DNA of 64,000 nt from NCBI GenBank assembly GCA_944392425.1, contig CALXWM010000001.1:23589-87588 (forward strand). The letters are read 5' to 3'. This DNA is from an uncultured Clostridia bacterium. GTDB taxonomy: Bacteria; Bacillota; Clostridia; TANB77; CAG-508. The translations under genes and the position numbers were made by a program. The notes beneath the pieces were generated by a model. The model was not told the DNA's origin, made no database searches, and worked only from the letters and a program-made list of their open reading frames with translations. Numbering within the stretch: the first letter of the stretch is position 1; the number at the start of each line of letters is the position of its first letter. This document shows positions 3,325 to 40,755 of this stretch, in pieces.

Positions 3325-3604
3325 ATAAAATTCACCTTATTTAAAAATTTAGGTTTTTAAGGTTACCTATAAACCTAAATTTTATATCCTTATTTATAAA
3401 AAAATAAGAACACAAAATCTCTACCATATTGTATATGCAAAAGACTTATTTGTCAATAACTAAAGATTGGCAAAATGCCTAATAATACTGTAATTCTCGC
3501 AAAAATGAGTTATATGTGTTTTTTACGAAAATATAAAAATTAAGTTATATTTAGATTATTTATTTCATAGTATTTGATAGAAAAATCTTTAAAGGAAGGA
3601 CAAA

Positions 3605-11978: not shown

Positions 11979-12620
11979 TTAATTATTTGCAAGCTTTGTT
12001 CCTATGTTTTCAAAAAATTCAATAATCTTAAATTTGATATTAGTAATTCCATTTTCATCAGTATCTGAAATTATACTATACTCTTCATCTCCTAAGTTTT
12101 CTTCCAAATTTTCTTTAGATTCTTCTGGAACAACTCCAGATGTAACATCTACAAAACATAGAGGAGGAAACATTACACACCACCAGTTTTGACCTTCTGC
12201 TTTACCGATTTTTACTCTTAAAGCATCATAAAAACCTGCAGGAAAGCTAATATCTCCATAAGTTTTTGTTGGGAATGAAAAGTTACCTATTTCTATATTA
12301 ACTTCATAATTATATCCATTTTCTTCTACAACATTTTGAGCAATGTTTTTGAAATCATCAATGTGTTCATGTGCAATTTCAATAACTTCATCTTTAGTAT
12401 TCAAATCATTTGTTAAAGTATTCATATAATTTATAAGGCAATCACGAACTTTGTATTTTAAATTTTGATCCTCTTCACTATCACTATTTGCAATTACGTG
12501 TAATCTAAACACGCTATCCGCTAAATTATTACTTACAGCATTAACATAAGAATAAGCAGAAAGTAATAAAAATGCAACTGACACAATTAATAAAAGTAGA
12601 TATTTTTTCATATAAATCAC
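11979..12620 (-). CDS. spoIIR: Stage II sporulation protein R
   Basis: Signal/TM N-terminus and the SpoIIR signature FRLHVIANSDSEEDQ. Adjacent to murA as in many Firmicutes. Confidence 0.75.
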   Translation of the reverse strand: MIYMKKYLLLLIVSVAFLLLSAYSYVNAVSNNLADSVFRLHVIANSDSEEDQNLKYKVRDCLINYMNTLTNDLNTKDEVIEIAHEHIDDFKNIAQNVVEENGYNYEVNIEIGNFSFPTKTYGDISFPAGFYDALRVKIGKAEGQNWWCVMFPPLCFVDVTSGVVPEESKENLEENLGDEEYSIISDTDENGITNIKFKIIEFFENIGTKLANN

Positions 12621-12792: not shown

Positions 12793-12857
12793 TGTCGAAT
12801 TTTGACGAACGATTTTTTTGTAATAATCTTGACACATTTGTAACAAAATGGTAAAAT
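12793..12857 (+). promoter_or_regulatory. Tandem Spo0A-box-like motifs plus a sigma-A-like promoter upstream of ORF 12884
   Basis: TGTCGAA (12793-12799) and TGACGAA (12803-12809) have a 10-bp phase. TTGACA (12829-12834), 17-bp spacer, TGgTAAAAT (12849-12857). Confidence 0.4.
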
Positions 12858-12883: not shown

Positions 12884-13315
12884 ATGAAGATAGAAAACGT
12901 ATGCAATTTTTATGCAAGTAAGTATCATCTAAGTGTTGTACTATATGAATACTTAAGAAAAAATTCTAGAAAGGAAATTATTACATTTTTTGAAGATGGA
13001 ATTAATGAAGAAATGAAAATGGTAGAATCAAGAGCAAAGCGTCATATTAAAAATAAAATTAATTTTAATGCAAATAATGATATACAAAATACATATATTA
13101 ACCAAAGCAAAAACTTAGTATTTATACTTATGGGAAGTAATTTATATTTGAAGGAGGCGAATAGTTATATTAAAGAAGAGCTTAAATTCATGAAAAATGT
13201 AAAAGCTAAAATTATTAATTGTTATGATTTTGATCAGCAAAGAAATTTTATGAAGGACATTATTAAAGGTAGTGATAAAATTTTGTACACTACTGGTGAA
13301 AAGGTGATTGAGTAG
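12884..13315 (+). CDS. Hypothetical protein (143 aa)
   Basis: Intact ORF with an upstream promoter module. No recognisable motif. Confidence 0.45.
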   Translation: MKIENVCNFYASKYHLSVVLYEYLRKNSRKEIITFFEDGINEEMKMVESRAKRHIKNKINFNANNDIQNTYINQSKNLVFILMGSNLYLKEANSYIKEELKFMKNVKAKIINCYDFDQQRNFMKDIIKGSDKILYTTGEKVIE

Positions 13316-16680: not shown

Positions 16681-16734
16681 AATCTGACAATAATTATTAA
16701 TTTAAAGAATAATTGTTGCAGATTTTTATTTTAT
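16681..16734 (+). terminator. Rho-independent terminator after the phosphomutase gene
   Basis: Imperfect hairpin AATCTGACAATAATT...AATAATTGTTGCAGATT followed by TTTTATTTT. Confidence 0.45.
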
Positions 16735-16768
16735 ATTAAAAGTAATATAGAGAAAATATGTAGAAAAA

Positions 16769-16844
16769 TGTCGAAAAAAGTCGACGAAAAATAATGATTA
16801 TTTATATAAAATTAATTGACAAGAAACAGAAATTAACATATAAT
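16769..16844 (+). promoter_or_regulatory. Conserved module: tandem Spo0A-box-like TGTCGAAAAAAGTCGACGAAAAA plus sigma-A promoter for the Rpn gene
   Basis: TGTCGAA 16769-16775 and GTCGACG 16780-16786. TTGACA 16816-16821, 17 bp, TATAAT 16839-16844. The same 23-mer and geometry occur at 33021-33096. Confidence 0.5.
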
Positions 16845-17052
16845 GAGGACATAATTTAAAGCTTTAAATTAAAAATATTTTATCATGAAATTTTTTATAT
16901 AATTAAATTGATTCAAAATTTAAATCTTAAAAATTTCAATAAAAAATTTTATTAAATGTATAACCTATATTTGAGGTTTTTTTTATAATTCTTGTTAAAA
17001 ATAAGATTTAAATCACGAATTCTCACAGAAAATTATAATGGAGGATTATTAT

Positions 17053-17997
17053 ATGGCAGAAAAAGAAGAAAGTATAAAATTATTAAAACCAAAGATAGAC
17101 ATAGTTTTTCAAAGCTTATTTAGCAAGAAAAATGAAAAAATAACAAAAGCATTTGCAGAAGCAATGTTAGATGAAAAAGTAAAAAAAATAACAATAAACG
17201 ATGATAAAGAATTATTTAGAGAAAAACCAGAAGATAAACTTGGGATATTAGACCTAGAATTAGATATAAATGACAGAGAAAAGGTAGATATAGAAATACA
17301 ATTAGTGGATAGATCAAATATACAGGAAAGGTTATTGTTTTATTTTTCAAAATTGTATTATAACGAAGTAAAAAAAGGGGATGACTATAAAAAGGCTAAA
17401 AGAGTAGTAATGGTAGCGATACTAGATTACGATTTTAACCTAACAAAAGAAATTAAAAGAATGGAAACAAAATGGAAACTTAGAGAAGAAAATGCAAAAG
17501 ACCTCGTCTTGACAGACAAAATTGAAATAGATATAATAGAACTATCTAAAGTAAGGGCTGAATATGAAAAAAATAAGCAAAACAAAAAGGCACAATGGGC
17601 ATTGTTCATAAACGACCCTAATACTAAGGAGGTCAAAGAAATTATGAAGGAAAATGAAGATATAGAAGAAGCAGTAGTAACAGTACATAAAATGACAGAA
17701 GATGAAAAAATGAGAAGACTAGCAGATTTAAGAGAAAAAGCCATATTGGATGAAAAGGCAATTAGACGTAAAGGCTATGAAGATGGACATGAAGCTGGTT
17801 ACGAAGATGGCCGAACAGAAGGCCGAGCAGAAGGTCGAGCAGAAGGTCGCGCAGAAGGACTGGAAAAAGGAAGAACAGAAGGAAAAGCAGAAGAAAGAAA
17901 AGCAATATTAAATAATTTAAAGAAAATGAAATTATCAACAGAAGAAATTTGCAAAATTTTAAATATAACAACAGAAGAATTAGAAAAAATGGAATAG
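17053..17997 (+). CDS. Rpn-family recombination-promoting nuclease / putative transposase (YhgA-like PD-(D/E)XK) with C-terminal DUF4351-like tail
   Basis: N-terminal PD-(D/E)XK core (ILDLELD...DIEIQ). C-terminus carries EGRAEGRAEGRAEG repeats and a terminal STEEICKILNITTEELEKM helix typical of this family. RBS GGAGGA 7 nt upstream. Confidence 0.75.
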   Translation: MAEKEESIKLLKPKIDIVFQSLFSKKNEKITKAFAEAMLDEKVKKITINDDKELFREKPEDKLGILDLELDINDREKVDIEIQLVDRSNIQERLLFYFSKLYYNEVKKGDDYKKAKRVVMVAILDYDFNLTKEIKRMETKWKLREENAKDLVLTDKIEIDIIELSKVRAEYEKNKQNKKAQWALFINDPNTKEVKEIMKENEDIEEAVVTVHKMTEDEKMRRLADLREKAILDEKAIRRKGYEDGHEAGYEDGRTEGRAEGRAEGRAEGLEKGRTEGKAEERKAILNNLKKMKLSTEEICKILNITTEELEKME

Positions 17998-18923: not shown

Positions 18924-18998
18924 TGTTTCCGTAGCTCAGTTGGATAGAGCAATCGCCTCCTAAGCGAGAGATCGGCAGTTCGACTCTGCCCGGGAACA
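18924..18998 (+). tRNA. tRNA-Arg (anticodon CCT)
   Basis: Cloverleaf: acceptor GTTTCCG/CGGGAAC, D-arm GCTC..GAGC, anticodon loop CTCCTAA, T-arm GGCAGTTCGACTCTGCC. Genomic CCA follows. Confidence 0.85.
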
Positions 18999-19017
18999 CC
19001 ATCATAATATTTTATAA

Positions 19018-19050
19018 AAGTACAAAAATAAAATTGTACTTTTAATTTTT
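19018..19050 (+). terminator. Rho-independent terminator after tRNA-Arg
   Basis: AAAGTACAA-AAATAAAA-TTGTACTTT followed by TAATTTTT. Confidence 0.6.
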
Positions 19051-19466
19051 GGTCATAAAATGTCAAATTATGTAAAATTAAATATAAAAGATAAAATAAT
19101 CACGAGTGTAAAAATTATATAGAAAATCGCACAATAAGTTTACAATAATTTAATTATGTATCTTGAAAATATACCATATTTTAGAAAAAGTTTAATAAAT
19201 TTTCAATTATCACGATTTAACGTTGATGTAGTATGATTTATTGTGATAGTATTTATGCTGTGCTTACAGTACAGCTGAAAACACGACTTTTTATAAATAG
19301 CAAAACATCGCAACTAATGTACCAAAAAATGTAGAAAAATATATATAAATCATCCTGTAGCGTAATTGCCAACTTGTATATGTAGAAAGGGATAATGCTA
19401 TTTATTATAATTTCATTGTTGTACAGAGCAGGGGGTGATTTATAGGAGAGGAAAGAGAAAAAACAA

Positions 19467-20330
19467 ATGAGCTTTGGAGAAAACTTAACTAATTTAAGAA
19501 GACAAAAAGGTTGGTCACAAGATGATTTAGCAAACAATTTAGATTTATCAAGACAAGCAATTTCTAAATGGGAAAATGAAACTAGTAAACCTGATATTGA
19601 TAACATTAAAAAGATAAGTAAAATTTTCTCTATAAAAATTGATGACTTGATTAATAATGAGCTACCTGATGATAAAGCAGTTACATTGGATGTTAAAAAA
19701 GAAGAGAAGAGAGAGAAAACTATTACCATTATAAAATTAATGATTATCGCTGTGATAATTTTATATGTAATTAGCGTTATCTATAAGTTTGCTTCATTAT
19801 TAGTAATTGTTAATGGTGTGCAAAAGTATGCTAACTTAAATAATTATCATTATGTTATTACTACTTACGATGAAAACGGATTAGCTGAGAAAGAGGAATG
19901 CTGGTTTAAAGACGGAGTATCGAAAACAATAAATACAGCGGTGGAAGATGAAATATTATATGAAAAGCAAACGTATATTGATTATAATAATGCTCTAGGA
20001 TATACAATTATTGACAATAATAAACAGAGGATAAACTATGATGAATATATAAAATATAATCTGAATTTTGAATTAGGTGGGCAAATGTTTTCAAATTTTC
20101 CGGTTGTAATCCAAGAGAATAATGTTGTTTCAATTTTAGCAAAAGCTTTTAGAGTTAATAATAGTTCAATCAAAATTGAAAATAATTCAATTATTTTAAA
20201 CTTTGATAAAAGTTATGTTATTTTAGATAAATCAACATTGCTTCCAATAATGGGGATTTATGAGAGCAATAAAAATGATAATAATATTCAATCCTATTTT
20301 ATTGAGCTAAATAATGTTTCAAAATTATAA
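19467..20330 (+). CDS. XRE-family HTH transcriptional regulator with a central TM segment and C-terminal extracytoplasmic domain
   Basis: HTH_3 (LRRQKGWSQDDLANNLDLSRQAISKWE). TM helix IIKLMIIAVIILYVISVIY. Confidence 0.7.
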   Translation: MSFGENLTNLRRQKGWSQDDLANNLDLSRQAISKWENETSKPDIDNIKKISKIFSIKIDDLINNELPDDKAVTLDVKKEEKREKTITIIKLMIIAVIILYVISVIYKFASLLVIVNGVQKYANLNNYHYVITTYDENGLAEKEECWFKDGVSKTINTAVEDEILYEKQTYIDYNNALGYTIIDNNKQRINYDEYIKYNLNFELGGQMFSNFPVVIQENNVVSILAKAFRVNNSSIKIENNSIILNFDKSYVILDKSTLLPIMGIYESNKNDNNIQSYFIELNNVSKL

Positions 20331-20353
20331 AAAAACAGGTCTATTATAGACCT
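20329..20353 (-). terminator. Terminator hairpin for the minus-strand secreted-protein gene (bidirectional)
   Basis: AGGTCTA-TTA-TAGACCT with a T-run on the minus strand. Confidence 0.5.
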
Positions 20354-20372
20354 GAAATAGGAGAGAAAAGAA

Positions 20373-20858
20373 TTAATCATAAATAAAAGCAGCAACTTGG
20401 TAGGGTGTTGTGATTCCAGAGGAAAAATAGAAAGTATAGTTCCCTGCCGGAGCATAAGTTAATTCACGAGAATAGGTGGAACTACCGGTTCCAACCATAC
20501 TTCCCAAACTTATTGTTTGACCGTTGGGAGTAAGAACAGAGCATGTAACCACGCTATTCTGATCAGTGTATCCAATTTGGGCAACAATGTCGGCCCAAAA
20601 GTTGCCACTCGGAAGGGTTACTGTCAGAGTACCACTGCCACCATAAATGGTTGTAGCACCACCTGCAATCACATCGCCCAAGCTGGCCCGGGTGCTGACA
20701 TCTTCCGAAGCAGAAACAGAATCGACTTCTTCAGAGACCGAAGTCAGATTGATCGTTTCAGACTTGGCAGGCTCAGCGGCAAAAGCCGAAGTGGTAAAGC
20801 CGATAGCCAGAGCCAAAGTCATCAGAAGAGCAACAAACCGTTTCTTCATAGCATTCAT
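20373..20858 (-). CDS. Secreted Gly/Ser/Thr-rich small protein of unknown function, encoded by a compositionally foreign (GC-rich) gene
   Basis: Sec signal peptide (MKKRFVALLMTLALAIGFTTSAFA). The gene is roughly 45-50% GC against roughly 28-30% in neighbouring genes. GCC/CCG/GGC codons are absent elsewhere in the window. Confidence 0.65.
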   Translation of the reverse strand: MNAMKKRFVALLMTLALAIGFTTSAFAAEPAKSETINLTSVSEEVDSVSASEDVSTRASLGDVIAGGATTIYGGSGTLTVTLPSGNFWADIVAQIGYTDQNSVVTCSVLTPNGQTISLGSMVGTGSSTYSRELTYAPAGNYTFYFSSGITTPYQVAAFIYD

Positions 20859-21090
20859 CCTTTCTAATTTGTAATGAGTTGATAGTCGGACATTTCTACT
20901 CTCTCCTATTTTTTATATTACCATACACTCTGGAAAGATTCAGAATGTAATAGTAATCAAATTATGCTAAATGCATACATCAAGATATTTACCACCTACG
21001 AGACCAAACTTCTGTATAAAAAGATGAATTGTGAATTACTGGGAAACTTTTGGAATTGACCAAAGGTCCATAATAATTAGGCACATATAA

Positions 21091-21453
21091 ATGCGAGTCG
21101 AAGATAGAAAAATTATTGATGCAATTATGGTGGAACTAAATCACTTCAAATTTAGTCGTTCATCAATATCGTACCAATATTTAATCGACGCTATCCACAT
21201 AGTTGTGAAGAGCCCAATTTCTATCAAGAATTTTAATAAAAGTATTTATGGGCCAATTGCAAAAAAATATGAGACAAAACCTGAAAATGTACAATGGTCA
21301 TTAAGTAAATTAATTGATTTAATGTATTCAAATACTCCATCAGATGTAATTTATGATTATTTCAGATTTTTTATGGATGAAAAACCTACGCTCAAATTTT
21401 TTATTATAACGGTAGCGAGAAATGTATATGATAACCAAGTTGGTTACGGTTAA
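21091..21453 (+). CDS. Orphan Spo0A C-terminal (Spo0A_C) DNA-binding domain protein lacking a receiver domain
   Basis: Aligns to the Spo0A effector domain: SYQYLIDAIHIVV matches GYQYLREAI, IYGPIAKKYETKPENVQWSLSKLIDLMY matches [28 protein letters not shown], and KPTLKFFIITVARNV matches KPTNSEFIAMVADKL. Confidence 0.6.
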   Translation: MRVEDRKIIDAIMVELNHFKFSRSSISYQYLIDAIHIVVKSPISIKNFNKSIYGPIAKKYETKPENVQWSLSKLIDLMYSNTPSDVIYDYFRFFMDEKPTLKFFIITVARNVYDNQVGYG

Positions 21454-21509
21454 TTATTATATACGTGCTTTGTATAACAAAATATTTAAAAGAAAGAAGG
21501 ATTAGAACT

Positions 21510-21776
21510 ATGGACAAAAAGTTATTTGCAACATTAAGTGTTGCAAAAGGGGATACTACAGACGAGATTAAAATCTACAAAATTAAAGGAGAAAAATTCG
21601 GCATTCAAATCGAATCAACTGTTGATTCTAAAACTATGGTTAATACTGCCGAAAATATAACAAGTAGTGAGGAGAAAATAAATAAGCTTCTTGATACTCT
21701 TGTTATGAACTCAGAAAATTTTACATTATTAGAAGATTTTGCGTATGATTTCGCAGACATTGCTCTATCTGTTTAA
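21510..21776 (+). CDS. Hypothetical small protein (88 aa)
   Basis: ORF starting MDKKLFATLSVAKGD. Followed by a perfect 10-bp palindrome hairpin AAGCATATTA/TAATATGCTT (terminator). Confidence 0.4.
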   Translation: MDKKLFATLSVAKGDTTDEIKIYKIKGEKFGIQIESTVDSKTMVNTAENITSSEEKINKLLDTLVMNSENFTLLEDFAYDFADIALSV

Positions 21777-22151
21777 ATGAATAAGCATATTATTTAATAT
21801 GCTTTGTTATTAGGCAAGTAGGGCATTTTTTAGAATTTTATTGTAAAGTATTTTTTGTAATTGAGCGTAGCAGAGGGTATAAATACTTTACAATTAGTTG
21901 GGAATTTATTTGGAACGCTTCGTGTAAATTTATTCAAAATACGGAGGACGATAAGCTTGAACCTTAGAGTAAATAAGCTTTATAGAAGTTTATGTGCATA
22001 AACTGCATAATTACGCACATAAATCTTTGTTAATTTTATAAGTTGCGTAAACTTGCAACAATATTAAATATATGTTATTATAAATTATGTCTTTTATAGG
22101 TTTAATAAAACGCCTTAAGATAATATATTTTCTTTAGAAAGGGTTTGCATA

Positions 22152-22616
22152 GTGAATAAAGAAGATTATATGAAGTTAGCATTAGAAGAGGCAAAAAAGG
22201 CATATGATGAATTAGAGATTCCAGTAGGTGCCATCATTGTTAAAGATGGTAAGGTAATAGCCAAAGCATATAATGAGAAAGAGAAAAAACAAGATAGTAC
22301 AAAGCATGCAGAAATATTGGCAATCCAAAAAGCTACTAAAAAGTTAAAATCATGGAGATTATATGATTGTGATATGTATGTAACTTTAGAGCCATGTAGT
22401 ATGTGTGCTGGAGCACTAATCCAGTCAAGAATTCGTAAAGTATATATTGGAACTATGGACGAGAAGACTGGTGCCTGTGGATCTGTTTTAAACCTATTAG
22501 AAGATTATAAATTTAATCATAAAGTTGATGTAGAATATGGTATTTGCCAGGTAGAATGTGAGAAAATCTTAAAAGATTTTTTTAAATATCTTCGAAAGCT
22601 TAAAGGTAATAAATAG
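22152..22616 (+). CDS. tadA: tRNA-specific adenosine deaminase
   Basis: CDA zinc motifs HAEILAI and PCSMCAGAL. GTG start. Synteny tadA-scr-dnaX as in Bacillus. Confidence 0.85.
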   Translation: MNKEDYMKLALEEAKKAYDELEIPVGAIIVKDGKVIAKAYNEKEKKQDSTKHAEILAIQKATKKLKSWRLYDCDMYVTLEPCSMCAGALIQSRIRKVYIGTMDEKTGACGSVLNLLEDYKFNHKVDVEYGICQVECEKILKDFFKYLRKLKGNK

Positions 22617-22666
22617 TCTACATTCATATGATTTATATAATAACATGTTTTTTTATGCCATAATCT

Positions 22667-22758
22667 GAAGAGATACCGAAGTGGTCATAACGGAACTGCC
22701 TCGAAAGCAGGTGGTCACATTTAGTGGCTCGTGGGTTCGAATCCCACTCTCTTCGCCA
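22667..22758 (+). tRNA. tRNA-Ser (anticodon CGA), long variable arm
   Basis: Acceptor GAAGAGA/TCTCTTC, 3-bp D stem, anticodon loop CTCGAAA, long extra arm, T-arm GTGGGTTCGAATCCCAC. Genomic CCA follows. Confidence 0.8.
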
Positions 22759-23650: not shown

Positions 23651-23790
23651 AGGGTATGAGAATGTTTCTTTATAGAGGATATTCTCAATAAAAGGCTATG
23701 AATCTTGTCAGGACCGGAAGGTAGCAGCAATAAGTAGATTCTTTTATGTGGGGATATCCTCTATGGAGAAAGGTTTTTGTACCTTTATTT
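23651..23790 (+). ncRNA. ffs: Signal recognition particle RNA (scr/ffs)
   Basis: Conserved domain-IV motif GTCAGGACCGGAAGGTAGCAGC at 23708-23729. Flanking helix TATAGAGGATAT/ATATCCTCTATGG. Terminal hairpin AAAGGT-TTTTGT-ACCTTT followed by a T-run. Conserved position upstream of dnaX. The ends are approximate. Confidence 0.75.
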
Positions 23791-28103: not shown

Positions 28104-28154
28104 TTTATAATAAATTTAAATTGCTATGAATTTTAACAATATGTGAGGTATTGT

Positions 28155-29543
28155 ATGAGTAAAATTAAAGATAAAATTTATGATTTTAAAGATAGGTTAA
28201 GAGATAGGAAGATGCTTACTTTGGTTGTTACTTTAGTTGCAATCATAGTTGTGCTTGGAGTTGTTATTTTTAAAAAGCAATTAGAGTATAGGGGATTAGC
28301 AGAAAACAGTTACAATAACGCATTTTATCAATTGGTTGAATATGTTAATCAAACAGAAGTATTGCTAGCAAAATCAACGATTACAAATAGCAGTAAACAT
28401 GGTGCAGAAACCTTAACAAATATTTGGAGAAATTCTGGTTTAGCAGAAACTTATTTAGCAAGACTTCCAATAGGAACACAGGAACTTGAGCAAGCACAAA
28501 AATTTTTGAATCAAGTTTCAGATTATAGTTATACATTGGCAAATAAAACAATTGGAGGAGAAGACTTAAGCCAAGAAGATTTAGATAATTTAACAAGTTT
28601 GCATCAATACTGTGGATCACTAAAGGACACTTTAAATCAACTAGAAATTGATTTGTATTCCGGTAACATTAAATGGGGAGAACTAGAAAAAGCCGGAGGA
28701 GAAGCTTTAACTCAAGAAGCAAGTAATTTATCTCAAAGTAGCTTTGGAAGTATGGTAGAAAATTTACATGAATATGCTGGTTTAATTTATGATGGAGCTT
28801 TTTCAAACCATATGACAAATCCTGAAAGAGTTGGACTTACAGGAGATGAAATAGATGAAACAAAAGCAATGGAAATAGCAAAAGATTTTATAGGAAATAA
28901 TAGAATTACAGAAATGACTTCTAATGGTCAAAGTCAAAATGGAAATATTGAATGTTATAGTTTTACGGCAAAAGTAGGAGAAAAAGAAATATTTACAATA
29001 GCCATTTCTAAAAAAGGTGGACATGTAGTATTTATGAATTCAAACAGAGATATAGCAAATGAATCTATTTCACCAGAAGATACTGTTGCAAAAGGCAAAG
29101 AATTCCTTGAAAGCAAAGAATTTAAAAATATGAAATCAACATATTACATGAACAATGGTGGCGTATTAACTGTGAACTATGCGTATGAACAAGATGGAAT
29201 TACTATGTATCCAGATTTAGTTAAAGTAAAAATAGCATTAGATAATTGTGAGGTATTAGGAATTGAGTCTACAGGATATTTAAATTGCCATAGAGATACT
29301 AGAGAAGTATCAGAAACAAAAATTACTTTAGAAGAGGCTAGAAGTAAAGTTAACCAAAACTTGAATGTTAGTTCATCAGGATTAGCAGTTATACCAACAG
29401 AGTGGGGCACAGAGGTACTTTGCTATGAATTTAAAGGAAATACTGCGGACAATGATTTTATAGTGTATATAAATGCTGAAACAGGTGAAGAAGAAGATAT
29501 TTTGATGATAATAAATACACCAGAGGGAACATTGACGGAGTAA
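28155..29543 (+). CDS. ypeB: Germination protein YpeB (PepSY-domain protein)
   Basis: N-terminal TM, YpeB-like N-region (YNNAFYQLVEYVNQ), C-terminal PepSY repeats. RBS GAGGT before the ATG at 28155. Confidence 0.75.
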   Translation: MSKIKDKIYDFKDRLRDRKMLTLVVTLVAIIVVLGVVIFKKQLEYRGLAENSYNNAFYQLVEYVNQTEVLLAKSTITNSSKHGAETLTNIWRNSGLAETYLARLPIGTQELEQAQKFLNQVSDYSYTLANKTIGGEDLSQEDLDNLTSLHQYCGSLKDTLNQLEIDLYSGNIKWGELEKAGGEALTQEASNLSQSSFGSMVENLHEYAGLIYDGAFSNHMTNPERVGLTGDEIDETKAMEIAKDFIGNNRITEMTSNGQSQNGNIECYSFTAKVGEKEIFTIAISKKGGHVVFMNSNRDIANESISPEDTVAKGKEFLESKEFKNMKSTYYMNNGGVLTVNYAYEQDGITMYPDLVKVKIALDNCEVLGIESTGYLNCHRDTREVSETKITLEEARSKVNQNLNVSSSGLAVIPTEWGTEVLCYEFKGNTADNDFIVYINAETGEEEDILMIINTPEGTLTE

Positions 29544-32940: not shown

Positions 32941-32970
32941 AAAATGTAATTGCAAAAATAAAATAAAAAA

Positions 32971-32997
32971 ATATATAATTAAGGAGTAAATTCTAAT
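32971..32997. repeat. Left copy of a ~30-bp direct repeat bracketing the second Rpn gene
   Basis: ATATATAATTAAGGAGTAAATTCTAAT, repeated at 34333-34369 with an 8-bp insertion. Confidence 0.6.
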
Positions 32998-33020
32998 ATT
33001 TGTCATTTTTTGTCATATCT

Positions 33021-33096
33021 TGTCGAAAAAAGTCGACGAAAAAGTGAAATAAATTTGTCAAAATATATTGACATAAAAAATTAAAAAATGTAAAAT
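33021..33096 (+). promoter_or_regulatory. Second copy of the Spo0A-box-like tandem motif plus sigma-A promoter module
   Basis: TGTCGAAAAAAGTCGACGAAAAA at 33021-33043. TTGACA 33068-33073, 17 bp, TGTAAAAT 33089-33096. Confidence 0.5.
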
Positions 33097-33409
33097 ATAA
33101 CCATAAATTTTAATCAAGAAATTAATTTCAAAGTTAATTTATTCTATATTTTTTCAATAAGACAAAAATCATTTTAAAAGGAGGTGAACTTTTAAGCGAA
33201 GGACAAAAAATTAATTGTAAAAGATAAAATTTATAATATACTAAAATTTGTATCAAATAATTTCGGTCGACAAGTTTATTTATTTTAATTCAATATATTT
33301 TATATCTATGTTATATCAAATATGTAGAAACAAGAAAAATAAAAATAAACAAAAATAAAAAGTAGTTGAAAAATCGTAATATATTTGATACAATAGAAAC
33401 GGAGAACAT

Positions 33410-34225
33410 ATGTCAAATATTAAAGTAAACAAAGTTGACGCACCACTTTTAGATGATTATGTCTTTAAGCGTACATTTACAAGAGATGATCCAAATGGAA
33501 TACTTAAAGATTTTTTAGAAGCAGTATTAAAAATAAAAATACATAATGTACAAGTATTGAATGCAGAAATACCAAAGGACTTGTTAGATGAAAGAGGAAG
33601 CGTTTTAGATGTTAGAGCGGAGTTAGACAATAATAGAATTGTAGATATCGAGATGCAAGTAAATGATGAAGGCAACATAGATAAACGCAGTTCAGTGTAT
33701 ATGAGTAAAAATATTTCGACTCAAATAAAAGTTAGAGAAGATTATAAAGGCTTAAAACCATCAATAGTGATAAACATTTTAAATTTTAATAGATATAAGA
33801 GAAATAGCTACCACTCAGTGGCACATATGAAATTTGAAAAAACAAGTCAAGAAGAATATGTAGACTTAGGATACAAAAAGGAAGAAGAAAATGCAACAGA
33901 TGTGCTAGAAATGCACTTTATAGAATTGCCAAAATTTTTAAAGAAAAATCCTGAAGCAAAGACTAGCCTAGAGCAATGGCTATGGCTGATAGCAGGAAGG
34001 GAGGACAAAGTAAAAATGTCAAAGTTAGATAATCCAGAAGTAAAAAAAGCGATGAAGTTGGTAGATGAAATAATGTCAGACCCAAAAGAAAGAGAAATAA
34101 TCGAAGCAAGAGCAATGGCAAAGTTTAACTATGACACAGGAGTAGCATATGCCAAAGAAACTGGCAAAAAAGAGCGGAATTCAAGAAAACAAAAAAGAAA
34201 TGGCCAAAAGGATGAAACAACTTAA
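33410..34225 (+). CDS. Rpn-family PD-(D/E)XK nuclease paralog. Its C-terminal helix continues in the +1 frame to 34298 (frameshifted).
   Basis: N-region matches the 17053 paralog (DYVFKRTF...IVDIEMQ). After the stop at 34223-34225, the alternate frame reads AKRMKQLKMADDQICQILNISTEELKKLIND, matching the conserved family C-terminus. A poly-A run at 34156-34162 is the likely slip site. Confidence 0.65.
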   Translation: MSNIKVNKVDAPLLDDYVFKRTFTRDDPNGILKDFLEAVLKIKIHNVQVLNAEIPKDLLDERGSVLDVRAELDNNRIVDIEMQVNDEGNIDKRSSVYMSKNISTQIKVREDYKGLKPSIVINILNFNRYKRNSYHSVAHMKFEKTSQEEYVDLGYKKEEENATDVLEMHFIELPKFLKKNPEAKTSLEQWLWLIAGREDKVKMSKLDNPEVKKAMKLVDEIMSDPKEREIIEARAMAKFNYDTGVAYAKETGKKERNSRKQKRNGQKDETT

Positions 34226-34332
34226 AATGGCAGATGATCAAATATGCCAGATATTAAATATATCAACAGAAGAATTAAAAAAGCTGATTAATGACTAAAG
34301 GTGTTTTTGAATTGCAATTTAGATAAAAAGAA

Positions 34333-34369
34333 TATATAATTAAGAAAAATTTAAGGAGTAAATTCTAAT
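34333..34369. repeat. Right copy of the direct repeat, followed by a (TA)8-9 microsatellite at 34399-34415
   Basis: ATATATAATTAAG-AAAAATTT-AAGGAGTAAATTCTAAT. AAGGAG plus ATG opens a 19-codon ORF that runs through the TA tract. Confidence 0.55.
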
Positions 34370-34553
34370 GACAAAAATCGCTGAAAGCCTTGGGGCTGTA
34401 TATATATATATATATCGTAGGATTTAACAAAGTAAATTTATGTGAACATAGAGAAAAAACTATGCTTTTTAGACGTACTAAAATTGTCTAATCGGCATAA
34501 TTTTTTTTGTGAAAAATAAGAATTTTAAGAAAACAGGAGGAAATTTTAAGTCT

Positions 34554-35941: not shown

Positions 35942-36116
35942 TACATAAGAATGTTTATGAAAAATAACTAACTTTGTCAAATTTTATCGAAATAACTAGG
36001 CTAATTAATTGTACTCAAAATCTTGACGAAACATCATTAAAATAGTATTATAAAGGAGTGACGATGATTTAATAAAAAGAGAAGGAACAGTATCAAAAGT
36101 AATAGTATTAGACAGA

Positions 36117-36476
36117 TTGAACAAAAGAAAAATAATATATAATATAAATGAAATAATATTAGAAATATATAAAACATTAAAAAATACAGAAGAAAAAGAA
36201 ATAATAGAAAATTACATAAGATCTTCATTAACAGAACTTATAAATAATGCACAACTAGATGAAGTTATAAAGAAAATAAATAAAAATGAAGGAGGAGAGA
36301 ATAGTATGTTAAGACAAACTATAATAGAAATGATTGAAGATGGAAAAGAATCTGGCATAAGCCAAGTAGCAATTAATATGTTGAAACAAAAACATAAAAA
36401 AGAAGAAATACAAAAATGTACGGGCTTAAGTTATGCTAAAATAACAAAGTTAGAAAAATCATTACAAAATGCATAA
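36117..36476 (+). CDS. Stand-alone Rpn-family C-terminal (DUF4351-like) domain protein: candidate RpnS-like small protein or gene remnant
   Basis: The C-terminus GKESGISQVAINMLKQKHKKEEIQKCTGLSYAKITKLEKSL matches the terminal helix of the two Rpn paralogs. Internal Met at 36306. Upstream: TGTCAAATTTTATCGAAA motifs, TTGACG, 17 bp, TATTAT. Confidence 0.5.
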   Translation: MNKRKIIYNINEIILEIYKTLKNTEEKEIIENYIRSSLTELINNAQLDEVIKKINKNEGGENSMLRQTIIEMIEDGKESGISQVAINMLKQKHKKEEIQKCTGLSYAKITKLEKSLQNA

Positions 36477-37578: not shown

Positions 37579-37682
37579 AAACTTGAAATATGCATGTTTC
37601 ACAATTTTAGTTGACATATTATACATAATGTAGTATAATAAAATTGTTGAACTAATGAGAAATAGAGAAAAGAGGTGCTAAG

Positions 37683-38640: not shown

Positions 38641-40755
38641 ATGGGAAGTTCGTTTAGTGAATTTATGAAAAAGAATTTAAAATATATAATATTTGCGTTA
38701 GTATTATGGGCAATAGGCGAAATCTTTTTAGTTGCGCCTATTGCTTTAAGCATTAGCCAGAGCTATGTTGATGGATTATTCGATATAGCTCTTTTTATCG
38801 AAGCTTTAGTTGAAAATATAGTATCATTCTCATCAATTGGTAAAGTATTCACAAGTGAGGCAATTGGAGCATTTGGTAGCTCAACTTTGTGGTATACATT
38901 AATTGTTGCTTTGGCAGTAGGTATAGGAGCGTTTAAAAATAGAAAAAAGACAAAATATCAAAATATAGAACATGGATCAAGCGATTGGTGCCAAGGTGGA
39001 GAACAATATAGGGTTTTGAGTAGAAATTCTGGGTTACTTTTAGCTCAAAATCATTATTTACCACTAAATAAATTAGGAAATATAAACGTATTAATTGTCG
39101 GTGGTTCTGGTTCTGGTAAATCTTCAAGTTACACTATTCCAAATGCACATCAAATGCTTGGTTCATATGTATTTACAGACCCTAAGGGTGAAATATATGA
39201 TACAACAGCAGGCTTTTTACAGAAAAATGGATATGAAATAAAAATATTAAATTTAGTTAATCCAACAAGTAGTGATAGTTACAACCCATTACAGCACATT
39301 CAAAATGAAATAGATGTAGACGTTATAGCAAATACAATAGTAAAAGGACAGAAGGCAGAAGGAACGGCAACAGACCCATATTGGGACAATATGGCTGAAA
39401 TTTTGCTTAAAGCTCTTATTTATTATATTATTGCTACAAGACCACCAGAAGAACAAAACTTAGCAAGCTGTGCAGAACTAGTTAGAGCTGCAAATAATAA
39501 TGGTGGAAGCAACTTACTTACAGAACTCATGAGCCAGTTACCTTATGACCATCCAGCAAGAATGAACTACAAATCTGTTGAAATAGCATCAGAAAAAACA
39601 TATAGCTCAATTTTAAGTACATTGCAATCAAAACTTGGTAAATTTGACTCAAAGGAAATAGCAGATGTAACTTCAACAAATACAATAGATTTTGTTGACA
39701 TAGCAACTAAGAAAACAGCTTTATATGTTGTATCATCAGATACACATAGTGCATATGACTTTTTACTTACAATATTCTTCTCACAAATGATACAACAGTT
39801 ATATGATTTTGCAGATAAAAATGGTGGTAAATTACCAATTCGAACGTTCTTTATACTTGATGAGTTTGCAAACATAGGTCAAGTACCAGACTTCGATAAA
39901 AAGATATCAACAAGTAGAAGTAGAGGAATTTCATTTAGTGTTATATTACAGAACTTAGATCAATTAAAAGCAATATATGAAAAGTCTTATGAAACAATTA
40001 TAGGTAACTGTGATACTCACGTATTTTTGGGAAGTAACTCGTATGCAACAGTTGAATATTTTTCAAAGGAATTGGGAGAGAAAACAATTACTCATAATAG
40101 CAAATCGGTTAATAGAAATAATGTAGATGTAAGAACAGGATTTAGTGAATCAGATCAAATTATGGCAAGAGCTTTAATGACACCTGATGAACTTAGAAGA
40201 ATGGATAATAATGATTGTATTATCTTTGAAAAAGGATTAAAACCAATAAAAGCTAAGAAGTTTTGGTATTTTAAAACTCCAATGCTTAAAGATTTTAATG
40301 CAAATAGAATTGACCATAATGATTATGAATGTCAAGAAAGAGGAAACTGGAGAAAATACAATCCATATAATCCTTATACGGGTAATGAGAATGTAAATGA
40401 GCAAAGCAAAGATGTTAAGATTGAATCTTTGGATGACCTGTTTGAAGATGCTAAACCAGTAGAGCCAGTAAGTGATGTTCAGCAAAATTCTGGAATTCAA
40501 GGATTGCAAGGCACATCAGCAGTTTCAAATAACGGGTTTAATGCAGATGTAATTCCAAATGCAGGACCAAGTTTTGCATCAGTACCAAATAATCAGCCTT
40601 TGAATAATGGTTCAAGTGTTGAGAATCAGCCAACTAACATTCTTCCGGGATTTGAAGATGAAGCTACAAAACAAATGCAAGATACATCAGATGATGAAAT
40701 AGATATTCAAAAAGAATTAGAAGCAAAATTTGACGAATTGTTTGGAAGTGATTAA
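38641..40755 (+). CDS. Type IV secretion coupling protein (VirD4/TraG/TraD family)
   Basis: Two N-terminal TM helices, Walker A GGSGSGKSS, and the family signature FILDEFANIG...SFSVILQNLDQL. Acidic disordered C-tail. Confidence 0.8.
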   Translation: MGSSFSEFMKKNLKYIIFALVLWAIGEIFLVAPIALSISQSYVDGLFDIALFIEALVENIVSFSSIGKVFTSEAIGAFGSSTLWYTLIVALAVGIGAFKNRKKTKYQNIEHGSSDWCQGGEQYRVLSRNSGLLLAQNHYLPLNKLGNINVLIVGGSGSGKSSSYTIPNAHQMLGSYVFTDPKGEIYDTTAGFLQKNGYEIKILNLVNPTSSDSYNPLQHIQNEIDVDVIANTIVKGQKAEGTATDPYWDNMAEILLKALIYYIIATRPPEEQNLASCAELVRAANNNGGSNLLTELMSQLPYDHPARMNYKSVEIASEKTYSSILSTLQSKLGKFDSKEIADVTSTNTIDFVDIATKKTALYVVSSDTHSAYDFLLTIFFSQMIQQLYDFADKNGGKLPIRTFFILDEFANIGQVPDFDKKISTSRSRGISFSVILQNLDQLKAIYEKSYETIIGNCDTHVFLGSNSYATVEYFSKELGEKTITHNSKSVNRNNVDVRTGFSESDQIMARALMTPDELRRMDNNDCIIFEKGLKPIKAKKFWYFKTPMLKDFNANRIDHNDYECQERGNWRKYNPYNPYTGNENVNEQSKDVKIESLDDLFEDAKPVEPVSDVQQNSGIQGLQGTSAVSNNGFNADVIPNAGPSFASVPNNQPLNNGSSVENQPTNILPGFEDEATKQMQDTSDDEIDIQKELEAKFDELFGSD

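Follow-up and report, generated by a model that had tools for sequence, protein, structure and literature searches.

The stretch of DNA analyzed here, a window of 64,000 nucleotides (nt) from an uncultured Clostridia bacterium (contig CALXWM010000001.1) with a GC content of 28%, carries two full-length genes of the Rpn nuclease family, rpn-1 and rpn-2, whose products share 28% identity. Each gene is preceded by an exact copy of the 23-mer TGTCGAAAAAAGTCGACGAAAAA, at 16769-16791 and 33021-33043, both on the plus strand, as stated in a preliminary description of the window. That description also proposed that the two genes have a common promoter module with a tandem resembling the binding site (0A box) of Spo0A, and this proposal was strengthened by comparison across 12 promoters. 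The features of the two loci are the following, with promoters scored as matches out of 12 to the hexamers TTGACA and TATAAT.

16682..16733, plus strand: terminator hairpin and T-run of the upstream phosphoglucomutase (PGM) gene, from the sequence (PGM by Pfam)
16759..16791, plus strand: rpn-1 box array, TGTAGAA (16759), TGTCGAA (16769), AGTCGAC (16779) and an A-tract
16816..16844, plus strand: rpn-1 promoter, TTGACA-17-TATAAT, 12/12
16852..16871, plus strand: perfect 20-nt palindrome, half/half TAATTTAAAG/CTTTAAATTA, just 3' of the rpn-1 -10 hexamer
16851..17052, plus strand: inferred 5' leader of rpn-1, about 200 nt
17053..17997, plus strand: rpn-1, a 314-amino-acid (aa) PD-(D/E)XK nuclease of the Rpn family, RpnL-like long product (PF12784, E=4e-38; TIGR01784, E=1e-33)
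17509..17537, plus strand: rpn-1 internal promoter, TTGACA-17-TATAAT, 12/12
17626..17646, plus strand: rpn-1 internal start, AAGGAGG, 11 nt and an in-frame ATG (17644, codon 198)
17791..17893, plus strand: tandem repeats of 12-nt period, seven overlapping copies, encoding EGRA-like four-amino-acid units
33001..33043, plus strand: rpn-2 box array, TGTCATT (33001), TGTCATA (33011), TGTCGAA (33021), AGTCGAC and an A-tract
33056..33062, plus strand: additional near-consensus box, TGTCAAA, starting 12 nt before the rpn-2 -35 hexamer
33068..33096, plus strand: rpn-2 distal promoter, TTGACA-17-TAAAAT, 11/12
33366..33394, plus strand: rpn-2 proximal promoter, TTGAAA-17-TACAAT with a TG motif, 15 nt before the ATG
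33410..34298, plus strand: rpn-2, a 271-aa open reading frame (ORF) to 34225 with its tail in the +1 frame at 34200-34298 (PF12784, E=3e-45; TIGR01784, E=3e-37)

The distance from the start of the 23-mer to the TTGACA hexamer was 47 nt in both copies (hexamers at 16816 and 33068), and a 17-nt spacer then led to TATAAT (16839) in copy 1 or TAAAAT (33091) in copy 2. The 0A box TGTCGAA that had been noticed inside the 23-mer was a perfect match at both 16769 and 33021. The second box, described as following at 10 bp, was found in that register but was not a perfect box, since AGTCGAC matches at 5/7 positions. Beyond these two, each copy had additional phased boxes on the 5' side, at 16759 in copy 1 and at 33001 and 33011 in copy 2. 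Similarly, the near-consensus sigma-A promoter was present but not at the proposed distance of about 33 bp, the -35 hexamer lying 24 nt after the 23-mer. Of the two -10 forms given, TATAAT held and TGnTAAAAT did not, because the TG of copy 2 abuts TAAAAT directly. No further match to the 23-mer at up to three mismatches occurred in the window, and none was seen in 100 shuffles. A genome scan of the species collection returned the exact 23-mer at two loci in metagenome-assembled genomes, both orthologues of copy 1, and viral contigs contained no exact copy. The 24 nt separating the 23-mer from the -35 hexamer were about 46% identical between the copies, which is the chance level at 28% GC. With flanks and spacers at chance identity, the 23-mer is therefore an island of identity, with no recent duplication showing. 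Thus, the possibility set beforehand as speaking against a shared module, that the 23-mer belongs to a larger duplicated segment, was rejected, as 23 nt alone are common to the two copies and the flanks are unrelated. The 23-mer was also rejected as a terminator: the scan flagged a 5-bp hairpin alone, on the minus strand, with no converging gene. The rpn-1 box array starts about 25 nt past the PGM terminator, and the rpn-1 upstream promoter was kept in homologous loci L001, L004, L005, and L006. Perfect TTGACA-N16-18-TATAAT sites numbered three in the window versus 0.14 expected: the two of rpn-1 and a third at 37611.

For homologues of both Rpn proteins (57 to 98% protein identity), we compared the DNA upstream of the genes, with the -35 hexamer as the anchor. 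The module recurred in dissimilar genomic neighborhoods with the same order of parts: two to four heptads in head-to-tail orientation with three A/T bases between them (a 10-bp period), then TTGACA-17-TATAAT or TTGACA-17-TAAAAT, in family 1 the palindrome directly after the -10 hexamer, and a leader of 200 to 320 nt. The matrix of 32 phased heptads from the 12 related promoters (T28 G31 T28 C26 G24 A20/T10 A26) gave the consensus TGTCG(A/T)A, with G2 kept in 31/32 heptads, C4 in 26/32, and G5 in 24/32, and with A at position 6 in only 20/32. The promoter-proximal box lay 16, 26 to 27, or 35 to 38 nt from the -35 hexamer, and the helical phasing at a 10.5-bp period was R=0.9 (p<1e-4 versus uniform spacing, a value that overstates independence, as the promoters are kin). 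These distances indicate that the array remains on a single helical face, with the sequence in between varying in length by whole turns. Between the window and orthologue L001, the 33-nt array, both promoter hexamers, and the palindrome were identical, and the sequence just 5' of the array and the 24-nt spacer had diverged. When both strands of 207 kb of related DNA were scanned, rpn promoters and the promoter of a gene at 12884 in the window were the only places with the strict pattern TGNCG-10-TGNCG, which always pointed at the gene.

The core box of Spo0A is TGTCGAA, with specific contacts at G2, C4, and G5. The DNA-binding domain of the Clostridioides difficile protein recognizes the same box as the Bacillus subtilis protein, binding by the C. 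difficile protein drops about ten-fold when these bases are mutated, and binding in vitro was predicted by a perfect box, also at genes unrelated to sporulation (PMC3485338). The consensus of the arrays described here, TGTCG(A/T)A, equals the 0A box, and its best-kept positions are the Spo0A contact bases. The arrays also resemble Spo0A-regulated promoters (abrB, spo0A, spoIIG, and comK of Bacillus; spo0A and sigH of C. difficile) in combining the TGTCGAA core and these contact bases with several near-consensus boxes each, arranged head-to-tail with a 10-bp period. As a positive control, metagenome contigs were scanned for the canonical tandem TTGTCGAANNNTGNCGAA, which matched at least 120 loci. 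Among the matches listed, 65/120 lay inside long ORFs and resembled chance matches, and 55/120 lay outside. Spo0A controls its own gene and, in Bacillus, comK; among the matches listed, the tandem adjoined a full-length spo0A gene twice (L057 and L116) and comK twice (L075 and L104), as well as an orphan histidine kinase gene (L148) and a DUF6514 gene (L063). The composite form TGTCGAA-N3-TGTCGTACGATT was found in the rpn promoters of L005, L006, and L022, nearly so at 12793 in the window, and in two phage-like contigs of 46% and 27% GC (L151, 10760-10830, minus orientation; L152, approximately 852-900). Because the composite box occurs both in rpn promoters and in phage-like contigs of differing GC, its spread argues for a factor common across Firmicutes and not encoded by the rpn cassette. 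In L151, the box sits between an ArpU-like gene and an HNH and terminase block. On this sequence evidence, the 23-mer would be the conserved core of an array most likely bound by Spo0A~P, and we give Spo0A control of the rpn promoters, the best of the readings considered, an even chance. The stand-alone Spo0A_C-like protein encoded in the window (21091-21453) found no support as the binder, as its recognition helix has diverged (VQWSLSKLID compared with VERAIRHAIE in Spo0A).

Head-to-tail repeats of helical period, phased upstream of a -35 hexamer, are also typical of winged-helix response regulators, and the boxes could instead bind another host regulator of 10- to 11-bp direct repeats, such as an OmpR/PhoB-type response regulator or CtsR. 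The operator of CtsR is a tandem, (A/G)GTCAAA-NAN-(A/G)GTCAAA, that overlaps the promoter; the 7-3-7 layout of the arrays is like it, and copy 2 has TGTCAT boxes. The heptads nevertheless differ from that of CtsR, with T at position 1 in 28/32 and G at position 5 in 24/32, and the boxes lie upstream of the -35 hexamer and not over it, so the arrays do not fit a CtsR operator. The heptad consensus equals the 0A box, and the form TGTCG(A/T)A is not known to us for any other regulator. We consider binding by another host regulator quite unlikely.

Two further arrays in the window had been likened to the rpn module.

12793..12857, plus strand: tandem TGTCGAA-ttt-TGACGAA, CGATTT, TTGACA (12829), 17-nt spacer, TGgTAAAAT
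35975..36051, plus strand: weak array TGTCAAA-ttt-TATCGAA, TTGACG (36023), 17-nt spacer, TATTAT, before the ORF at 36117-36476

The first of these contains the perfect tandem TGTCGAAtttTGACGAA at 12793-12809 (TGTCGAA at 12793 and TGACGAA at 12803) and lies upstream of a 143-aa gene (12884-13315) that is divergent from spoIIR. The tandem and the TTGACA hexamer proposed for this site were both found, but the geometry was not the same, as the array is about 11 bp, one helical turn, nearer the -35 hexamer. The family of the 12884 protein is narrow, with 110 proteins always encoded between spoIIR and the UDPGP and PGM genes. Its AlphaFold model (predicted local distance difference test score, 94) has a RecA/KaiC-like alpha/beta fold, and no solved structure matched the model below E=1e-3. 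The second array, with the weaker tandem TGTCAAAtttTATCGAA at 35975-35991, was also present together with TTGACG, but the assignment of the ORF behind it as a stand-alone Rpn C-terminal gene was rejected: ORF 36117 had no Rpn match in Pfam and only an E value of 1.3 to the Rpn-1 tail by BLASTP.

The rpn cassettes of L006 and of rpn-2 are bounded by duplicated target DNA. In L006, the rpn unit (773-2018) is placed between 88-nt direct duplications (685-772 and 2019-2106) that are 98% identical; the duplicated target is the groES promoter with its CIRCE element, and the right end of the unit is 2 nt past the rpn stop codon. rpn-2 is flanked by a duplication of at least 28 nt (32970-32997 and 34342-34369; 86% identical, and longer with an 11-nt indel), which places the cassette at approximately 32998-34311. 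The target in this case comprised the promoter, the ribosome-binding site, and the 'AAT' of a downstream small ORF; a (TA)n microsatellite (34399-34416) lies in the same ORF. Long and variable duplications such as those at the rpn cassettes are not typical of DDE transposases. The left junction of the rpn-2 cassette is 3 nt away from the box array, and the boxes could in principle be recombination or end-binding sites for mobilization. However, in the recent insertion at L006 about 125 nt separate the left end from the boxes, in L016 and L020 the boxes have about 50 to 130 nt of the cassette on their left, and the right ends, at the rpn stop codon, have no inverted copy or CGACA boxes. A common left-end motif, TGTCAAAAGGGAC..(C)TTGACAC, was found upstream of the boxes in L006 (773-800), L016 (2160-2200), and L020 (2075-2110), so that the boxes lie inside the full cassette and do not form its terminal repeats. 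L016 has a second copy of this motif after the gene (3405-3460). Thus, the cassette junctions in L006, L016, L020, and the window led us to reject a transposon terminal-repeat reading, and a role of the boxes in mobility is highly improbable. L005 and L006 have a further element in common immediately 5' of the boxes, a promoter-like site together with a terminator hairpin whose changes are compensatory, which may specify a small transcript traveling with the cassette.

Several observations weigh against Spo0A control. The two distant paralogues share the module because it is inherited with the mobile rpn cassette, with no independent recruitment for each gene; the conserved islands in it still point to function. 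Additionally, 9/10 occurrences of the strict tandem in the 207 kb were at rpn genes, which would fit a cassette-specific factor. The boxes could thus be the operator of a protein encoded by the cassette, either the HTH-like C-terminal domain of Rpn or an RpnS-like protein, that regulates its own synthesis in the manner of type II antitoxins. The module moves with rpn genes into unrelated genomic sites, PF27070 (HTH_Rpn_C) matches some of the homologues, and the extreme C-terminal tails of the window paralogues are far more alike than their nuclease domains, all of which is consistent with such autoregulation. Yet the best tandem site of the window precedes the unrelated gene 12884, the composite box occurs in phage-like contigs with no Rpn match by tblastn, and the canonical pattern adjoins spo0A and comK genes among the matches listed. 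Antitoxin operators normally overlap the promoter, whereas the boxes lie 10 to 30 nt upstream of the -35 hexamer, and RpnS is described as working by contact between proteins (PMC10400941). A better operator candidate than the boxes is the palindrome at 16852-16871. Symmetric variants of it, the center included, are present in L004 (approximately 2290-2310) and L009 (approximately 2270-2285), and as RNA it folds at only -2.5 kcal/mol; because of this weak folding it looks more like the operator of a dimer than an RNA hairpin, and it may be a second operator for a dimeric, possibly cassette-encoded protein. We therefore rate a cassette-encoded factor as the ligand of the boxes unlikely.

The position of the boxes adds to the case against Spo0A. 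The rpn promoters are already at consensus (12/12 and 11/12) and need no activator, so that any effect could go either way. At 10 to 30 nt upstream of the -35 hexamer, the boxes are too distant to act by simple occlusion or to let Spo0A touch sigma region 4 in the usual way. Known Spo0A targets differ in this respect, as their boxes abut a weak -35 hexamer or sit downstream of the start site; they also differ in that the target here is a mobile nuclease cassette and the Spo0A site is a putative one. Upstream 0A boxes are nevertheless able to act on steps after polymerase binding and closed-complex formation (PMC12090719). The comparison further showed losses and variation: L003, with an 83% identical protein, lacks the module; the boxes of L016 are decayed; and in L013 to L015 (approximately 2340-2440), where the rpn-1 orthologue of another lineage is syntenic, the TGTCGAAAAA box is lost by a 10-bp deletion and the promoter, leader, and first codons are missing as well, which marks this orthologue as a decaying copy. 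At the 12884 promoter, two boxes were seen only in close relatives and one in the orthologue with 69% protein identity, and in the orthologue with 49% identity the boxes were gone and the core promoter persisted. Positions 6 and 7 differ among boxes (TGTCGCA, TGTCGTT, TGTCGAT, and AGTCGAC), and the 23/23 identity of the two copies, A-tracts included, exceeds what a Spo0A site needs and may reflect gene conversion or a second constraint.

Such observations also raise the question of whether the 23-mer has any present function or is a relic of the descent of cassette promoters, or a short patch produced by gene conversion between the copies. Throughout the family the promoters are homologous, boxes are decayed or gone in several relatives, and the 23/23 identity covers positions that a regulator would not constrain. 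A relic or patch would not readily account for boxes that form an island of identity in diverged flanks, between paralogues and orthologues alike, or for the preferential retention of G2, C4, and G5 and a helical phase that survives indels of 10 to 11 bp. The same composite box in two phage-like contigs of very different GC also argues against it, and we regard absence of function as distinctly doubtful.

The Rpn genes are new members of a known family. The proteins of the window belong to PF12784/TIGR01784, unlike those of Escherichia coli (PF04754), and with the RpnL/RpnS systems (E. coli RpnA-E and RpnP2 and a C. difficile Rpn; PMC10400941 and PMC5350276) they share an N-terminal PD-(D/E)XK nuclease, hypervariable four-amino-acid repeats, horizontal mobility, split or stand-alone C-terminal genes, and, at the sequence level in rpn-1, an internal promoter with an in-frame internal start for a small C-terminal protein. 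The layout of internal promoter and internal translation initiation site (iTIS) is described in PMC10400941, as are an example from C. difficile and C-terminal genes that are split off or stand alone. In rpn-1, the internal start is predicted to yield a 117-aa RpnS-like C-terminal protein, and the internal promoter and Shine-Dalgarno-ATG pair were at the same offsets in 9/9 family-1 homologues (L001 to L006, L009, L011, and L013; 57 to 98% protein identity). The close homologues of rpn-1 encode 302, 306, 310, and 314 aa, in steps of 4 aa, and the repeat at 17791-17893 is, judging by its sequence, the hypervariable repeat described for Rpn proteins. rpn-2 also has an internal in-frame GGGAGG, 11 nt from its ATG (34016), and no consensus internal promoter was found in this gene. 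Past the stop at 34225, the conserved C-terminal tail of rpn-2, MAKRMKQLKMADDQICQILNISTEELKKLIND, can be read on in the +1 frame, and the early stop reflects either a frameshift close to an A-run or a split of the gene. Twelve contigs encode exactly this truncated product of 271 aa (relatives have 287 to 291 aa), and the frameshift is therefore real in the population.

The leaders of the rpn genes are long, and no Rfam match was found in them at E<=1. The proximal promoter of rpn-2 is kept in the family-2 homologues, and a separate transcript of the leader may arise from the distal promoter with the boxes. The family-2 leaders (33150-33400 in the window; L016, L020, and L022) have in common a Shine-Dalgarno-like block, AAAGGAGGTRAAC, that is not consistently followed by an ORF.

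The remaining features of the window provide the genomic context.

11979-12620, minus strand: spoIIR
19467-20330: RstR-like helix-turn-helix protein, in a block bracketed by tRNA genes
21091-21453: Spo0A_C-like stand-alone protein, 120 aa (PF08769, E=7e-14), in the same block
21465-21776: DUF6514 gene, in the same block
22152-22616: deaminase, in the same block
23672-23767: signal recognition particle RNA gene
28143-29543: ypeB

The host is a spore-former, since the window carries spoIIR and ypeB, its sporulation genes; the window itself holds no spo0A. The tRNA genes at 18925-18998 and 22667-22755 bracket the four-gene block (18925-22755). In the metagenome locus L063, tandem 0A boxes stand ahead of a DUF6514 gene. 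Downstream, a VirD4-like coupling protein of the CD1115 family (38641-40755) suggests a conjugative element.

In the mechanism that we propose, Spo0A~P dimers or oligomers on one face of the helix, upstream of the consensus sigma-A promoter, would modulate expression of the full-length RpnL-like nuclease. The upstream promoter would yield the full-length nuclease and, via the internal start, the short protein, and the internal promoter of rpn-1 would supply the short C-terminal protein (RpnS-like and the presumed antitoxin) independently, so that the ratio of nuclease to inhibitor, long to short, would follow the Spo0A state of the cell. Stimulation would be slightly likelier than repression, as the retained helical phase suggests that RNA polymerase is contacted. 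Mobile Rpn nuclease-antitoxin cassettes may then carry a Spo0A-sensing promoter of their own, with the balance of toxin and inhibitor reset at commitment to sporulation, which we hold to be possible at rather less than an even chance.

A cassette of this kind would be a new variant of known regulation, for which the 0A boxes of phage phi29 are the nearest precedent (PMC2731898). Like phages phi29 and Nf, the rpn cassettes would be accessory or selfish elements with putative 0A boxes and an expression that tracks the sporulation decision of the host. In the phages, these boxes repress early promoters and replication, and the genome is trapped in the spore (PMC2731898), whereas the element here is a chromosomal nuclease cassette and would be the chromosomal defense or selfish-element counterpart. 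Rpn proteins are widespread nucleases that have lately been recognized as gene-within-gene toxin-antitoxin and phage-defense systems. In the literature on the family we found no description of how the long toxic form is regulated; in the available parts of PMC10400941 and PMC5350276, no upstream regulator-binding array is described and sporulation is not mentioned, the word having no occurrence in that of PMC10400941. Even without Spo0A binding, the array would remain a conserved, phase-locked regulatory element. If it is bound by Spo0A, the rpn cassette would tie a DNA-cutting defense to the sporulation decision, the moment at which an intact chromosome is packaged and phages are known to exploit Spo0A.

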